64,000 bases of DNA from Patescibacteria group bacterium (GTDB lineage Bacteria; Patescibacteriota; Minisyncoccia; UBA6257; UBA9933), in assembly GCA_038057075.1 (NCBI GenBank), contig JBBUDV010000006.1:2216-66215 (forward strand), in the 5' to 3' direction. The notes under the pieces were generated by a model, which ran no database searches, was not told the DNA's origin, and saw only the letters and a program-made list of their open reading frames with translations. This document shows positions 7,644-42,532 of this stretch, piece by piece. Every line of letters starts with the position of its first letter. The first letter of the stretch is position 1. The position numbers and the translations under genes were made by a program.

Positions 7644-8411
7644 TCATGATTTCTGACTCATAATCGCCGCGCCAAGCGCCGGGCCCAATTCCCCTAACCT
7701 ACTTTTAATAATAAGTGTTTTTTTGGCAAGCGGCGGCGCTATATATTTTTTAGCGACAGATCTTACGGTTTTTAAATCAACTTTTCCGGTTAAAATTCCT
7801 CCGCCGCCCAAAATCACAATATCGGGATTTAAAACGTTTATCAAATTGGCAACTCCAATGCCGATAATTTTGCTCCGGTCGCCGTATTTTTGAAACGCTT
7901 TTTTGGCGGCTGATTCTTCAAAAGTTTTATTGCCGTCAATTATAATATGTCCAACTTCGCCGGCGCTGTTGCTACTTCCTGAATAAATTTCACCGTCTAT
8001 CATTATTCCTGAACCTATGCCCGTGCCAATAGTTATAGCCAAAACATTTTTTTTGTTTTTAGCCGCTCCCAGTGTTGCCTCAGCCCGTAAAAAACAACGG
8101 CAATCGTTATCTATTTTAACTTTAGAATGGAATTTAGCGAAAAATTTTTTAGCATTCCATTTGCCCATAAACGGAAATTTTGATGTTTTTCCTAAAAATC
8201 CATATTCCCCGACCACGCTGGCCAACCCAACGCCAACACCGCTAATTTTATTTTTTCCGACAAGTTTTACGATTTCCGTATCCAAAGTTTTCAAAAAAGC
8301 CGTCTTGCTTTTAGGCGTTAAAACAATAAATTTTGACAAGATTTTTTTTGAGACGGCATCAACCAAAACTCCCCTGATTTTAGTGCCGCCTATATCAAGA
8401 CCGATATACAT
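7644..8411 (-). CDS. ROK family sugar kinase/regulator-like protein
   Basis: N-terminal LDIGGTKIR and the ROK glycine-rich signature GIGSGIMIDGEIYSGSSNSAGEVGH. Confidence 0.75.
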   Translation of the reverse strand: MYIGLDIGGTKIRGVLVDAVSKKILSKFIVLTPKSKTAFLKTLDTEIVKLVGKNKISGVGVGLASVVGEYGFLGKTSKFPFMGKWNAKKFFAKFHSKVKIDNDCRCFLRAEATLGAAKNKKNVLAITIGTGIGSGIMIDGEIYSGSSNSAGEVGHIIIDGNKTFEESAAKKAFQKYGDRSKIIGIGVANLINVLNPDIVILGGGGILTGKVDLKTVRSVAKKYIAPPLAKKTLIIKSRLGELGPALGAAIMSQKS

Positions 8412-8426
8412 AAATTTAACTTATAA

Positions 8427-9410
8427 CTAAAAAAGTTTTTTTGCTTCGTTCCAAAATTCAGGATGGTTTTGTTTAGTCTTCAGCCAATACCACCATTCAA
8501 CACCCCATAAATACGCCTCGGAAAAACCAACATCGCGCGCGTATTTAATATTATCATTAAATTGAACAAAATCCATTGATTTAAATTGGTCTTCAAGCGG
8601 AGTTTCATAAATCATTTTCGGACCCCAAGGTTCGGCTTGGAGTTCGGAAACGATTATCGGCTTTTGGGGATAAAACAATCTCACAATATTGGCTTTTAGC
8701 CAAAAAAATTTCGGCGGCAGCGGATATTTGAAATAACCCGTATATTTATTCCATACGATTTTATACATCGTGGTGCCGAAAACGTCGGCGCGCTTGGCGG
8801 CTCTGACCCAAACGCTCAATTCCCCGCTGTCGGTAATCATAATTTTATGGTTCGGGTCCAATTTCCTGACCAAACTGATTTCTTTATCTAAAAAATCAAC
8901 GTCTAATTTCGGGCACTCGCCAAAAACCAAAAACGGTTCGTTTTCAACCTGCCATAAATAAAGATTCGGAATGTTTTTATATTTTAAAACCGTTTTTTCA
9001 ATGTAGTTTAAAACGCGTTCGTCAACGGCTTTTTTGTCCAAACCATCCGTCCACTTCGGTTCGTTGCATTCGGGCCAGCGCGGAGATTTGCGTCCTATTG
9101 CCAAAATAAGTTTCACGTTTCTTTTGCCTGCTTCATTTATCATCCAATCGTAATCGTCAAAAACATTTTCATCTTCATTGGGCTGAATGTCTCGCCAATA
9201 AACCGGCAAACGCAAAGATTTCGGCTTTAATTCGTCCAGAATCGCCAGATATGCTTTTTTCCAATTCAGTCCCATATCAATGGCAAAAGGTTTTGAAAAA
9301 GCCACTCCCCATTCAATATCTTTTGTTATTTCCGACGGCTGTCGTGTTAAATAAACAAATCCGAAATACAAAACAGCGAACAAGATTATTAAAAATAAAA
9401 TTTTTTTCAT
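8427..9410 (-). CDS. Secreted clan GH-A-like glycoside hydrolase (TIM barrel)
   Basis: Signal/TM anchor; NEP acid/base motif (WQVENEPF); candidate nucleophile in VSELQAEPWG. Confidence 0.5.
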   Translation of the reverse strand: MKKILFLIILFAVLYFGFVYLTRQPSEITKDIEWGVAFSKPFAIDMGLNWKKAYLAILDELKPKSLRLPVYWRDIQPNEDENVFDDYDWMINEAGKRNVKLILAIGRKSPRWPECNEPKWTDGLDKKAVDERVLNYIEKTVLKYKNIPNLYLWQVENEPFLVFGECPKLDVDFLDKEISLVRKLDPNHKIMITDSGELSVWVRAAKRADVFGTTMYKIVWNKYTGYFKYPLPPKFFWLKANIVRLFYPQKPIIVSELQAEPWGPKMIYETPLEDQFKSMDFVQFNDNIKYARDVGFSEAYLWGVEWWYWLKTKQNHPEFWNEAKKLF

Positions 9411-38561: not shown

Positions 38562-39809
38562 TTAGAAATTGGTAATTGTTTTAATTAATTCCTTTCCGCT
38601 CACTAATTTAATTTTTTCTTCGTTTCTCTTTTTAATTTCTATTTTCTCTCCGGTTTTTTCGCTGATTACCGCCCTTAACGGAATGCCGATTAAATCGCTG
38701 TCCGCGAATTTTTCGCCCGCGCTCGTTTCCTTTCTGTCATCATATAATACTTCAATTCCCGATTTTTTCAAATCAACATAAACTTCTTCGGCAAACCCCG
38801 AGACCTTTTCATTTTCCGGCTTAAGATTTATAAGATGAATATGAAACGGCGCCACGGACTCGGGCCAAATAACGCCTTTATCGTCATGATAAACCTCGGC
38901 GATGGTTCCCATAATTCGGTTAAGCCCGATGCCGTAACAGCCCATTATAACGTCCTGTTCTTTTCCATCCGCGTCTTTATAAACAAGATTAAACGGTTTT
39001 GAATATTTAGTTTTGAGTTTAAAAATGTTCCCGACTTCAATCGCCCGCTTTTCCTTTAAATTTTTATTGCCGCATTGCGGACAAACATTTTGTTCATTAA
39101 TAATTTCTTTATTAACCGCAACCCCGCATTTTTCGCAAAGATAAATCGTATCTTCTCCGGTTTCCGCCAATGTTTGAAATTCATGAGAATATTTTGAAAA
39201 ACTTCCTCCGGACGCATACGTTAAATGTGTCAAATCGCCCAAACCGAGTTTCTTAAAAATCCTTTCATACGCCTTGCTCGCTCTTTCATAATATTCTTCC
39301 ATATCCTTTTCGTCCCTGTGAAACGAATAAAGGTCTTTCATAAAAAACTCCCTGCCTCTTAAAAGGCCTGATTTTGCCCTTTTTTCGTCCCTAAATTTGT
39401 TCTGAATTTGAAAAACCGCGGTCGGCAAATCCTTATAGGAAAATATGAATTTTTTAAGCAATGGAGCCGCTATTTCTTCATGAGTCGGCCCGAGCGCGTA
39501 ATCAATTTTTGAATAAAAACTGGTGAATTTAAAAAGTGAATCATAGGTTTTCCACCTTTCGGTCTGTTCCCAATTGCTTTTTGGCTGAAGAGACGGCATC
39601 AAAATTTCCTGCGCGCCCAAGTCCGCCATTTCCTCGCGGATGATATTTTCTATTTTTTTAAAAACCCTGAAGCCAAGAGGTAAAAACGTGTAAACGCCGG
39701 CCATTAATTTATCCACAAATCCGCCGCGAATTAAAAGCTGGGCGTTTATTGCCTCCTCGTCTTTCGGCGCCTCGCGTCTGGTTTTAGTAAAAAGTTGTGA
39801 TTGACGCAT
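38562..39809 (-). CDS. proS: Proline--tRNA ligase, short bacterial form lacking the INS editing domain
   Basis: Class II aaRS motifs. 415 aa with a CxxC...CxxC zinc-ribbon insert. Confidence 0.8.
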   Translation of the reverse strand: MRQSQLFTKTRREAPKDEEAINAQLLIRGGFVDKLMAGVYTFLPLGFRVFKKIENIIREEMADLGAQEILMPSLQPKSNWEQTERWKTYDSLFKFTSFYSKIDYALGPTHEEIAAPLLKKFIFSYKDLPTAVFQIQNKFRDEKRAKSGLLRGREFFMKDLYSFHRDEKDMEEYYERASKAYERIFKKLGLGDLTHLTYASGGSFSKYSHEFQTLAETGEDTIYLCEKCGVAVNKEIINEQNVCPQCGNKNLKEKRAIEVGNIFKLKTKYSKPFNLVYKDADGKEQDVIMGCYGIGLNRIMGTIAEVYHDDKGVIWPESVAPFHIHLINLKPENEKVSGFAEEVYVDLKKSGIEVLYDDRKETSAGEKFADSDLIGIPLRAVISEKTGEKIEIKKRNEEKIKLVSGKELIKTITNF

Positions 39810-39833
39810 GTTTAAAAACTAATAATTTTTTTG

Positions 39834-39905
39834 TGCCTCAGAATGGAGTCGAACCATTGTTTGAGCGTTATGAGTGCTCTGTTCTAACCGTTGAACTACA
39901 GAGGC
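39834..39905 (-). tRNA. tRNA-Met (CAT), elongator or Ile2-type
   Basis: Anticodon loop CTCATAA, T-loop TTCGACT. One acceptor-stem mismatch; CCA not encoded. Confidence 0.65.
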
Positions 39906-40013
39906 AGCTACGCCGACTTTCATTTATTAAGTATAACCCAACCTGTTTTGATTTTTCAAGAAAATAAAAAATTAAACTCTTTACTAATAAGTGATTATCA
40001 TTTAATATATACC

Positions 40014-40085
40014 CGCGGGGTAGAGCATCGGTAGCTCGCAAGGCTCATAACCTTGAGGCAGTAGGTTCAATTCCTACCCCCGCAA
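40014..40085 (+). tRNA. Initiator tRNA-fMet (CAT)
   Basis: CGCGGGG...CCCCGCAA closely matches E. coli tRNAfMet, including the C1:A72 mismatch. Confidence 0.8.
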
Positions 40086-40087
40086 CA

Positions 40088-40543
40088 ATGGATAATAGAG
40101 AAAAAATCTCCAAACTCATAGAAATCGCAAAAGGTTTAATCGGAACTCCCTATAAATACGGCGCTTATCTGGAACAAAATAATGGGGCGTTGGCATTTGA
40201 TTGTTCCTCTTTTGTCCAACACGTTTTTAAGCAAATAGAAATTGAACTCCCCCGCTCTTCAGTTCTTCAAGCCGTTGCTCCAGGCCAAGAAATAAAAAAT
40301 TTGGAACTAGCCAAACCGGCTGATTTGATATTTTTTGAAGGAAATCGCGGCCATTACAGACATGATTTATTCCCAAATAGAAAAATTTATATTGGCCATC
40401 TGGGAATTTATCTCGGCAATGACGAAATAATACATGCCACTAATAACAGCAGCGCCTCCGGCGTGGTTATTCAAAAAATTTCAGAGCTTCAAAAAGAATT
40501 CCCCGAAGCGTATAAAATAGTGATGATAAAAAGATTTATATAG
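40088..40543 (+). CDS. NlpC/P60 (C40) family peptidase
   Basis: FDCSSFVQHVF with downstream His residues. The ATG starts 2 nt after the tRNA-fMet 3' end. Confidence 0.7.
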   Translation: MDNREKISKLIEIAKGLIGTPYKYGAYLEQNNGALAFDCSSFVQHVFKQIEIELPRSSVLQAVAPGQEIKNLELAKPADLIFFEGNRGHYRHDLFPNRKIYIGHLGIYLGNDEIIHATNNSSASGVVIQKISELQKEFPEAYKIVMIKRFI

Positions 40544-40548
40544 CAAGC

Positions 40549-40587
40549 AAAACACTGATATACTTAAGTATATCAGTGTTTTTTAAT
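40549..40587 (+). terminator. Rho-independent terminator
   Basis: acactgatatac ttaa gtatatcagtgt followed by tttttt. Confidence 0.7.
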
Positions 40588-40639
40588 ATTTCCCGCGCTA
40601 TCTTTAAAGATAGCAAAGATAATTTGATTCTTTATAAAA

Positions 40640-40966
40640 TAAAAGACCCCTGCCAAACTCCGTTGGCAGGGGTACGCCTTGTGTTCTTCGCGGCCACTGG
40701 CGCTGTAGTGGCCACGTATATCCCTGTTTCTCTATCCCCAAAACCGGGAATCGTTTATGAGGGGACAGCCAGCTGTTAACATACTGCTTCGTTTGGCCCG
40801 CTGTGACGACCATCCAAAATCTTAAAACAATTAATTTTTAAAGTGCTTTATTATCGTCCTGTACCCCGTAGGCTATGAAAGACGACAACCATCAACTCTA
40901 ACCCTTAAGTATCAAACGCTTCTTTTTAAGGGGGCGTTTTTAAGGACTTCATTAGGTGATGTTAAC
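40640..40966 (-). ncRNA. Candidate ~325-nt structured ncRNA of unknown class
   Basis: Minus-strand sigma70-like promoter (TTGACT-17-TATATT around 40970-40998) and a minus-strand intrinsic terminator at 40645-40672 (cccctgcc...ggcagggg + UCUUUUAUUUU) bracket a GC-rich hairpin-dense region. The only ORF here is a dubious 69 aa ORF that reads through the terminator. Confidence 0.35.
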
Positions 40967-41068
40967 AATAATATAACAAACTTCAAATTAAAAGTCAATA
41001 GCTGAAAAACAAGGTAAATTCAGCTTATTTTTCTTGATTTTAAAGGTCTTCTTTGATACCTTTACAAA

Positions 41069-42532
41069 ATGGCGCAAAATCAGGGAAAAAACTTAATAAC
41101 CCGCCCGCCGATTGTCGTTGTAATGGGCCATGTTGACCACGGAAAAACCACTTTATTGGACAACATTAAGAAAACAAATTTGGCCGCTAAAGAAGCCGGC
41201 GGAATTACGCAATCAATCGGAGCTTATGAAATTAAACACGAGGGTAAAAAAATTACCTTTATAGATACTCCCGGACACGAGGCGTTTTCAAAAATGCGAG
41301 CCCGCGGAGCCAAAATCGCGGACTTGGCAATTTTGGTCGTGGCCGCTGATGATAGCGTTCAACCGCAGACAAAAGAATCAATCAATATCTTAAACGAAAC
41401 AAAAACGCCGTTTATCGTTGCAATAAATAAAATAGACAAACCCAACGCCGATATTGAAAAAACCAAAAACGATTTGATGCAAAATAACGTTTTTTTGGAA
41501 GGCGCGGGCGGCAACGTGTCTTGGCATAAAATTTCCGCCAAAAGCGGAGAAGGCATTAACGAACTTTTAGATTTAATTTTATTGGCCGCGGAATTGGAAA
41601 ATTTGACTTACGACCCCGATGTTTCGGCAAAAGGAATTATTATTGAAGCCAAACTGGACAGCCGTAGAGGCATTACCGCCTCGGCGATAATTGAAAACGG
41701 CATTTTAAAAGTCGGAAACCACATTGCGACTAAAACCGCCTGCGGAAAGATAAAGTCCTTGGGAAACTTCATTGGAGAACCGGTAAGCCAGCTTGAACCC
41801 TCGGCTCCGGCCTTGATTTTGGGTTTTGAAACATTGCCCGAAATCGGCGAAGAATTCATGACGGGAGAAATCGCGCTTTCCAAAACTGAAACTAAAAAAG
41901 AAATCACAATCCGGCCCAAAGCCGAAATTAAAACAAAAGAAACCAGGCCTCAATTGAATCTCATTATTAAAGCGGACGTAAGCGGCTCTTTGGAAGCGTT
42001 AAGCGGAATCGTCAAAAACCTTAATCAAGAAAAAATCAAAATTAACGTTCTGGAAGAACAAGTCGGCGAAATCACCGATGGCGACGTAAAATCCGCCGGC
42101 GACAATAACTCCATAATAATCGGCTTTAACGTCAAAACAACCAAAGCCGCTGAAAATCTGGCTCGCGCCCGAGAAATAAAAATCGTCACCAGTAAAATCA
42201 TCTATGAAATTATTCAAATGATTGAAAAAGAAATGGAAGCGATTGAAAAACCGGCGCCTTTGGCCGAGATAGAAATTCTTTCAATTTTCAGCCAAAAAGA
42301 CAAAAAACAATTAGTTGGCGGAAAAGTCGCAAGCGGAACGCTTAAAAAGAACATATCAGTTAAAATTTTAAGGCAGAATGAAGAAATCGGCTCCGGCAAA
42401 ATAACCAGCTTAAAATCGTTTAAGCAGGAAGTTAATCAAATCCTTTCGCCTAACGAAGGCGGCATTATGATTGAATCGGTAACAATAATAATTGTCGGCG
42501 ACCGCTTAATTGTTGAAGCTCCTAAAAAATAA
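41069..42532 (+). CDS. infB: Translation initiation factor IF-2, short form
   Basis: [25 protein letters not shown]-domain motifs. Confidence 0.9.

Follow-up and report, generated by a model that had tools for sequence, protein, structure and literature searches.

Among described bacterial RNAs, the raiA motif RNA and similar orphan non-coding RNAs (ncRNAs) of Bacillota and Actinomycetota (RF03072) come closest to the RNA reported here: they are about 200 nucleotides (nt) long and independently terminated, combine covarying stems and pseudoknots with conserved unpaired nucleotides, and form GC-rich islands in AT-rich intergenic regions. A comparable architecture appears to be encoded on the minus strand, divergent from infB, in a 64,000-nt stretch of DNA from a Patescibacteria group bacterium (GenBank assembly GCA_038057075.1, contig JBBUDV010000006.1, positions 2,216 to 66,215; hereafter the window). 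This locus very probably represents a real and new family of structured ncRNAs. It differs from the raiA motif in that Rfam searches revealed no match to it in sequence or structure, and in that it occurs in Patescibacteria, where it has a handful of representatives. Unlike the raiA motif, it is also missing from close relatives and fused to another RNA in one lineage.

Other known systems share parts of this architecture. The pseudoknot string of transfer-messenger RNA (tmRNA; PK2–PK4) likewise lines up hairpin-type pseudoknots one after another within a single small stable RNA, but the RNA described here ends in an intrinsic terminator instead of a processed CCA end and has neither a tRNA-like domain nor a tag reading frame. 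Small RNAs (sRNAs) with UCCC motifs, of the RsaE/RoxS type, resemble it in having their own promoter and terminator and in presenting a C-rich motif in a hairpin loop; unlike them, it has a far more elaborate tertiary scaffold, a single C-rich loop and no targets in the window. The small self-cleaving ribozymes (e.g., the hepatitis delta virus-like, twister and glmS ribozymes) share with it a pseudoknotted core, invariant junctions, a patchy distribution and a varied genomic context; in contrast to their nested double pseudoknot, however, three tandem loop-to-tail pseudoknots are predicted here, and any catalysis would be hypothetical. The family is thus new within a general kind that is itself known, namely the stand-alone structured sRNAs of bacteria.

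Patescibacteria have tiny genomes with little non-coding DNA. To our knowledge, almost nothing is known of their regulatory and structural RNAs, and full-text literature searches on structured or non-coding RNAs of Patescibacteria, the Candidate Phyla Radiation and Parcubacteria returned nothing relevant. An RNA that is rich in pseudoknots, has a strong promoter of its own and has been preserved through compensatory changes, although sister lineages do without it, offers a concrete entry point into the RNA biology of these bacteria. It also lends itself readily to mining with covariance models, to structure probing and to screens for ribozyme activity or ligands. That it is fused to a second RNA (RNA-A, see below) in one lineage hints at modular RNA evolution. 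Should it prove to be just a rare accessory sRNA, its impact would be confined to annotation.

Identification of the RNA gene and its homologs

The gene is delimited by a sigma-70-type promoter and an intrinsic terminator (Table 1). A consensus scan of positions 39500-42000 returned this promoter as the best promoter-like site, with 10 of the 12 consensus positions matched and a TG extension. Because promoter-like sites are not enriched in this region (8 against 5.3 +/- 2.3 in shuffled sequences), the call rests on the quality and the conservation of the site. Transcription is expected to start at about 40963 and would proceed on the minus strand, away from infB; the positions of promoter and terminator give a transcript of about 330 nt. 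The terminator, with a stem of 11 pairs at 40673-40646 (seven of them G-C) followed by CTTTTATTTT, is the strongest of the 10 terminator-like sites returned by the same scan, in which 3.7 +/- 1.8 were expected. The 3' part of the transcript has a GC content of 0.53, as opposed to 0.38 for the whole window, a value that ranks in the top 1.9% among 150-nt windows, and the 331-nt transcript folds better than all of 100 shuffled versions of itself (z = -3.69).

These results bear out most of a preliminary description of the locus, which had noted a near-consensus minus-strand promoter, a textbook terminator downstream of it, the convergence of the latter with the terminator of the neighboring NlpC/P60 gene, and a GC-rich, structured 3' part. 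Its reading of the region as a stand-alone structured RNA gene also stands, given the promoter and terminator of its own and a fold kept by compensatory change in four homologs. The structured unit of about 325 nt that it proposed is correct as a promoter-to-terminator span, but the conserved unit does not comprise the whole 325 nt: it consists of a 3' core of about 150 nt (40822-40674, minus strand) plus the terminator.

The first homolog was found independently, through IF2/infB synteny, in a comparison upstream of infB in relatives of the kind that the preliminary description had proposed. It comes from a Wolfebacteria metagenome-assembled genome (L002) with the same NlpC/P60-RNA-infB arrangement; across the loci of infB relatives the RNA was present in one of five genome loci and in none of seven further lineages. 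The alignment of L002 with the window shows that the shared part is the 3' portion only: the blocks CGGGC, G(A/G)AGCAGU, ACAG(C/U)UGG, AACGAUU(C/U)CCGGUU and AGGGAUAUA are common to both, and the stems between them differ in a compensatory way.

Using a pattern built from two of the shared blocks (the loop of hairpin P3 and AGGGATAT), we scanned metagenomes and obtained 20 stretches, of which four are real and the others are fortuitous hits to coding sequence. Of the real ones, L016 is identical to the window; in L031 the RNA is again divergent from infB; and L029 and L033 represent the same locus with the same RNA from two samples, in which, within a Yanofskybacteria-like Parcubacterium, it lies between ComEC and a 200-amino acid (aa) open reading frame (ORF) that precedes GatA. 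There are thus four distinct versions of the RNA (window, L002, L031 and L029). Since the search pattern required both blocks, their conservation in L031 and L029 is by construction; all else in those loci is independent evidence. The RNA is common to a few ultra-small groundwater and soil bacteria.

The transcription signals recur along with the core. The promoter block AGCTATTGAC is common to the window, L002 and L031: the last has a promoter homologous to that of the window (TTGACTTTTAAT...TATAAA; TTGACT-17-TATAAA) about 30 nt from the core, and L002 keeps a AGCTATTGACT block (the -35 box) ahead of the RNA. L029 has a TTGACA-18-TATACT promoter (11 of 12 matches) located about 200 nt upstream of the core. 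Hairpins followed by a U-run also terminate the RNA in L002 and, as judged by eye, in L031 and L029; in the relatives that lack the 5' extension seen in the window (see below) the transcript measures about 210 nt. The L031 promoter has a peculiarity of its own, an insertion of about 135 nt (L031 455-600, minus strand) with perfect 11-bp terminal inverted repeats (CCCCGTTAGAA / TTCTAACGGGG) and a flanking TTGAC direct repeat, which sits inside the RNA promoter, regenerates its -35 box and has the look of a miniature inverted-repeat transposable element (MITE).

A shared fold with tandem pseudoknots

Comparison of the four distinct versions indicates that they share one fold, consisting of four helices (P0, P1, P3 and P4) and at least two pseudoknots (PK1 and PK2, both well supported), which has been kept by compensatory change. 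To evaluate it, we used a hand-made structural alignment, assembled segment by segment, padded with N and provided with artificial anchor blocks in unpaired columns only, because alignments made by MAFFT alone put P3 in the wrong register. Standard base pairs occupy 97.5% of 161 cells in this alignment, against 76% after column shuffling and 35-58% after the pairing partners had been slid by 1-3 columns; likewise, both partners have changed in 23 of 44 pairs, against 10.7 in column shuffles and 1-6 with slid partners. None of 500 shuffles reached the observed value on any pairing measure. Minimum free energy folds of the four cores, each computed from its single sequence, yielded the same P0/P1 and P3 in all four cases and P4 in three, and RNAalifold recovered P0/P1 from a sequence-only alignment. 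The minus strand is indicated as the transcribed one because several of the G-U pairs would be A-C mismatches on the other strand, which is consistent with the direction in which promoter and terminator point.

P3 offers the cleanest case of covariation, since its register is fixed by invariant flanks: both partners have changed in six of its eight pairs, and pairing is complete (100% of cells), with none broken. In the stacked P0/P1 hairpin 90-96% of the cells are paired; the P1 loop holds the 5' strand of PK1 (40804-40800), and the 3' strand of P0 is part of the GAAGCAG block. PK1 itself reads CAGC/GCUG in the window, CAAC/GUUG in L002 and L031 and CUGAC/GUCAG in L029, with two pairs changed on both sides. 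A hairpin occupies the P4 position in all four homologs, though its sequence cannot be aligned. As the P4/PK2 segments are unalignable by sequence, PK2 was subjected to a separate test. Its complementarity, between the P4 loop and the tail downstream, is found in four of four versions (GCGCC/GGCGU, GUGCCC/GGGCAC, GUACGC/GCGUAC and GGUGC/GCACC), and shuffling loop and tail separately for each sequence gave p = 0.010, 0.015, 0.012 and 0.052.

A third pseudoknot (PK3) is possible. RNAalifold, run on the sequence-only alignment, predicts a UYCC/GGGA pairing, by which the UCCC in the P3 loop (40749-40746) could pair with the downstream GGGA; within the same loop, AAC and GUU can pair with each other. 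The loop sequence occurs once in the window. Altogether, three unpaired blocks of the core are invariant, namely GAAGCAG, AACGAUUYCCGGUU and AGGGAUAU.

Such an aptamer-like architecture, with a pseudoknot directly upstream of an intrinsic terminator, might be that of a ligand-sensing, riboswitch-like element that uses the terminator as its expression platform. However, there is no co-oriented gene downstream in the window, L002 or L029, where the next gene is convergent (NlpC/P60 in the window); in L031 the contig ends there. Moreover, the 3' strand of PK2 lies outside the terminator stem, at a spacing that ranges from 1 to 14 nt, and because the two do not overlap and the spacer varies, no switching mechanism is evident. 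We therefore regard a riboswitch as quite improbable.

Table 1. Features of the RNA gene and of the loci discussed in the text. Positions refer to the window unless another locus is named.
Feature	Position	Strand	Remarks
Sigma-70-type promoter	40970..40998	-	TTGACT (40998-40993), 17-nt spacer with TG, TATATT (40975-40970); consensus scan
5' extension, ~140 nt	40823..40963	-	GC 0.36; strong hairpin GGUUGUCGUC...GGACGAUAAU, seen in centroid fold
P0/P1 stacked hairpin	40787..40819	-	P0 40819-40814 with 40792-40787; P1 40812-40808 with 40798-40794
PK1, 3' strand GCUGG	40769..40773	-	pairs with P1 loop
P3 hairpin, 8 bp	40732..40768	-	40768-40761 with 40739-40732; apical loop AACGAUUCCCGGUU at 40755-40742
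Invariant single-stranded block AGGGAUAU	40718..40725	-	identical in window and L002; GGGA (40724-40721) would be the 3' strand of PK3
P4 hairpin, 9 bp	40690..40715	-	40715-40707 with 40698-40690; loop GCGCC (40703-40699) is the 5' strand of PK2
PK2, 3' strand GGCGU	40674..40678	-	directly upstream of terminator
Intrinsic terminator	40636..40673	-	11-bp G+C-rich stem, 6-nt loop, then UCUUUUAUUUU
69-aa ORF, judged not a gene	40604..40813	-	no Pfam match; reads through terminator
NlpC/P60 gene	40088-40543	+	its terminator at 40549-40582, convergent on RNA-gene terminator
RNA-A	L029 3508-3695 (+); L046 ~8130-8378 (-); L047 8727-8920 (-); L048 7302-7690 (-)		between ComEC and 200-aa ORF, then GatCAB

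Relation to known RNA families and coding capacity

The RNA belongs to no Rfam 15 family and is not protein-coding. At gathering thresholds, Rfam 15 identified six tRNAs and nothing else in the whole window. With permissive filters (E <= 10), a search of both strands of 40450-41150 gave chance-level matches centred on the two terminators and none in the core, and the homologous L029 locus gave no match at E <= 1. ARAGORN also counted six tRNAs in the window and detected no tmRNA.

We considered whether a highly divergent housekeeping RNA (the RNA of ribonuclease (RNase) P, tmRNA, signal recognition particle (SRP) RNA or 6S RNA) could have been missed by the standard models. The size would fit, the gene has the appearance of being strongly expressed, its neighborhood contains translation genes and tRNAs, and the same slot holds a tRNA-Ser gene in relatives. 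The preliminary description had accordingly held the size to suit RNase P RNA or tmRNA, while remarking that the motifs of these two and of SRP RNA were not evident. The remark on the motifs agrees with our searches and with direct reading of the sequence, but the identity suggested by size was rejected for want of any family match, even at E <= 10; the Rfam comparison, which that description had itself recommended, assigned no family and uncovered no known housekeeping RNA.

Taking the candidates individually, the RNase P RNA models RF00010 and RF00011 found no match at gathering thresholds in the whole window or at E <= 10 in 40450-41150, and neither of the RNase P P4 motifs, CR-I (GAGGAAAGUCC...) and CR-V (ACAGAA..CGGCUUA), is found on reading the RNA directly; a CR-V look-alike, AACGAUUCCCGGUU, sits in a local hairpin loop and not in a long-range helix. 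The resemblance of this P3 loop to CR-V or to a tRNA T-arm (CGAUUCC) was dismissed, as the surrounding structure fits neither. No tRNA-like domain or tag reading frame was detected by ARAGORN or the Rfam tmRNA models. The SRP RNA models RF00169 and RF01854 gave no match; no tetraloop hairpin lies ahead of GAAGCAG, and the block reads GAAACAA in L029, so that the SRP-like AGCA becomes AACA. The 6S RNA model likewise gave no match, and the RNA folds into multiple hairpins with local helices, including the three predicted tandem hairpin pseudoknots, instead of a long rod. Finally, a relative with an IF2 91% identical to that of the window (L013) shows a clean deletion at the same site. As the RNA is absent from the same, syntenic site in close relatives, an essential housekeeping role is unlikely, and we judge a divergent housekeeping RNA to be extremely improbable.

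With regard to coding capacity, the preliminary description had discounted a 69-aa ORF in the region, and we concur: besides running through the terminator without a Pfam match (Table 1), it has no counterpart in L002, L031 or L029, where the longest sense ORFs are 25-43 aa and lie in other frames and positions. Gene callers left the RNA region empty in the long contigs.

Distribution and portability

The RNA gene behaves as a discrete cassette. In L013 both flanks align to the window, and a promoter-to-terminator block of about 365 nt is absent. L011 (IF2 75% identical) and L014 (67%) also have no cassette, with 58-64 nt between NlpC/P60 and infB. Elsewhere among the relatives, the slot upstream of infB is occupied by a tRNA-Ser gene (L003, L035, L036 and L038), a 63-aa zinc-ribbon ORF (L037) or other sequence (L039). 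When the window and 335 kb of other Parcubacteria loci were searched with a covariance model of the core (R1), the window gave one copy and the other loci gave none. An apparent second copy at L029 3070-3279 was rejected: its score of 21.6 bits dropped to 6.4 bits without filters, and it is without P3. As the RNA is missing at the same site in relatives and is fused behind another RNA in the L029 lineage, it is best seen as an accessory, portable module.

Presence or absence that differs between close relatives at two sites, together with the MITE-like insertion in the L031 promoter and the existence of the 69-aa ORF, might be taken to mean that the locus is a remnant of a mobile or repeat element, or else a small protein gene, with no function at the RNA level. 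However, the cassette is present as a single copy in the window, has no terminal inverted repeats at its ends and contains an ORF that is not conserved, whereas compensatory changes have kept its four helices and pseudoknots across lineages whose IF2 proteins are about 65-75% identical. Scans of viral contigs and BLAST searches against phages and plasmids found no homolog, and there is hence no evidence for a mobile-element or phage origin. This makes a functionless remnant or peptide gene very improbable.

Patchy presence among close relatives is also typical of small ribozymes. The core could accordingly be a self-cleaving or otherwise catalytic module that processes its own transcript, for instance by a cut at its 5' border that frees a variable upstream RNA. 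Its compact pseudoknotted form and invariant junction nucleotides would be in keeping with this, as would its location behind three different upstream sequences (a short leader, the 140-nt extension of the window and the 190-nt RNA-A). On the other hand, no known ribozyme family in Rfam matched the window or the core, in three lineages the core has a dedicated promoter and next to nothing to process, and a length of about 150 nt exceeds that of most small self-cleavers. A catalytic module thus seems rather improbable.

A proposed trans-acting recognition module

We propose that the locus is a stand-alone gene for a structured ncRNA of an undescribed Parcubacteria family that acts in trans, and give this overall explanation a probability of roughly 55%. 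Under this proposal, transcription would run on the minus strand from the conserved TTGACT-17-TATATT promoter and end at the intrinsic terminator. The functional part would be the 3' core, in which each hairpin loop would pair with its own downstream strand (giving PK1, PK2 and possibly PK3), so that the scaffold would hold GAAGCAG, AACGAUUYCCGGUU and AGGGAUAU in fixed positions. The RNA would then be a recognition module with a pre-organised shape, its invariant loops binding a partner that is most likely a protein. It would code for no peptide, regulate no downstream gene in cis and fill no known housekeeping role, and the cassette would be gained or lost as a whole promoter-to-terminator unit or become fused to other RNAs.

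Invariant loops displayed on covarying pseudoknotted scaffolds are seen in aptamers, ribozymes and ribonucleoprotein scaffolds, and are untypical of simple antisense regulators. We favor a trans-acting recognition module because invariant loops and junctions on such a scaffold suit a precise three-dimensional surface and not simple antisense pairing. Binding of a partner, which we derive from the pattern of conservation, is the tentative part of this proposal, and we hold it to be possible rather than probable.

The C-rich loop of P3 (GAUUCCCG, UCCC-type) could alternatively serve as the seed of a base-pairing regulatory sRNA directed at G-rich or Shine-Dalgarno-like sites in mRNAs, with AGGGAUAU acting as a self-complementary mask. 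Seed pairing is how UCCC-loop sRNAs such as RsaE/RoxS act in Firmicutes. In the present RNA conservation is highest in the 14-nt loop, which a long stem displays, its UYCC is complementary to the internal GGGA, and the gene has its own promoter and terminator, as in classic sRNAs. However, seed pairing has no need of a covarying fold with at least two pseudoknots or of the other invariant blocks. Further, sites complementary to the loop occur in the 64-kb window at chance level (8 with up to three mismatches, against 8.6 expected), and the sole match with fewer than three mismatches is the RNA's own loop. We therefore consider a seed-pairing sRNA unlikely.

Several points weigh against the trans-acting recognition module that we favor. 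The comparison draws on just four distinct sequences, two of which came from a pattern search in which the P3 loop and AGGGATAT were obligatory. The structural alignment is hand-made; within it, the covariation of P0 hangs on the register chosen for L029, and the apparent covariation of P4 and PK2 shows just that each sequence has a helix at that place. The sole change in PK3 is one-sided (C to U, giving a G-U pair). Furthermore, no partner protein is linked to the RNA by its neighborhood, and the contexts differ (NlpC/P60-infB as against ComEC-GatCAB); partner binding is itself an argument from the conservation pattern and not an observation.

Variable 5' regions and composite RNAs at the ComEC-GatCAB locus

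In the window, about 140 nt separate the promoter from the core (Table 1). Because the promoter lies about 30 nt from the core in L031 and L002, these 140 nt are best explained as a lineage-specific insertion in the transcript; the extension is absent from L002 and L031, and no other copy was found in the window or in any collected locus. It could form an H-type pseudoknot (AAACGC/GCGUUU with CCCUUAA/UUAAGGG). We also considered whether it is a relative of the 5' RNA of L029 (RNA-A) and rejected this, as a covariance model of the latter (R2) recovers all RNA-A copies at 117-136 bits and finds nothing in the window. The start of the transcript, UGUUAACAU (40959-40967), is perfectly complementary to AUGUUAACA (40774-40782), located between P0 and PK1. 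Such a pairing might dock the 5' extension onto the core; it is not conserved in L002 and L031 and could be due to chance.

In the L029 lineage the core forms the 3' end of a longer transcript, of which the 5' 190 nt are RNA-A. RNA-A is also conserved in L046, L047 and L048, where it lies behind the same promoter without the core and is followed either by a terminator (L046 and L048) or by a different GC-rich module (L047). It is preceded by the TTGACA-18-TATACT promoter and comprises a variable 5' hairpin of 60-250 nt and a 113-nt 3' domain, which is 87% conserved and contains covarying hairpins. It has no match in Rfam. The GC-rich module of L047, RNA-C (8490-8745, minus strand; about 250 nt), is fused behind RNA-A at the position that the core holds in L029; its sequence includes CAGUAAGGGUAAGGGGUGAAACUCCCC, faintly like J11/12 of RNase P RNA, and has no Rfam match at E <= 1.

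One could go further and see in the core a new functional class of RNA, be it a self-processing or catalytic module or one for recognition of a ligand or protein, which Patescibacteria have moved between transcription units, with the ComEC-GatCAB locus of Yanofskybacteria-like genomes being a hotspot that assembles composite RNAs from RNA-A, the core and RNA-C. We offer this as a long shot.

The same locus also displays a long inverted repeat, GCAACCCCTCCCCAATTTCCCCT ... AGGGGAAATTGGGGAGGGGTTGC, which encloses about 200 nt beside the start of ComEC (L029 3040-3330) and is likewise found at L046 8480-8720, L048 8486-8743 and L050 6290-6470. The enclosed segment differs even between L029 and L033, which are otherwise 99.6-99.8% identical.

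Genomic surroundings in the window

On one side the RNA gene is flanked by infB, which codes for a short IF2 of 487 aa, followed by rbfA; on the other side lie NlpC/P60, two tRNA-Met genes and a class II aminoacyl-tRNA synthetase. A protein identical to the IF2 of the window is present in Hainich groundwater assemblies, and its nearest named relatives belong to Wolfebacteria and Paceibacterota. The slot upstream of infB (window 41000-41068) is variable, with small genes or nothing in it; the 63-aa ORF of the type seen in L037 has a strong ribosome-binding site. Several assemblies break 200-330 nt upstream of infB, and ORFs for GIY-YIG and LAGLIDADG homing endonucleases are found a few genes away in L012, L014 and L037. 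Between the two convergent terminators of the window lies an 18-nt perfect palindrome, GCTATCTTTAAAGATAGC (40597-40614), which is kept in L013, a locus without the RNA gene.

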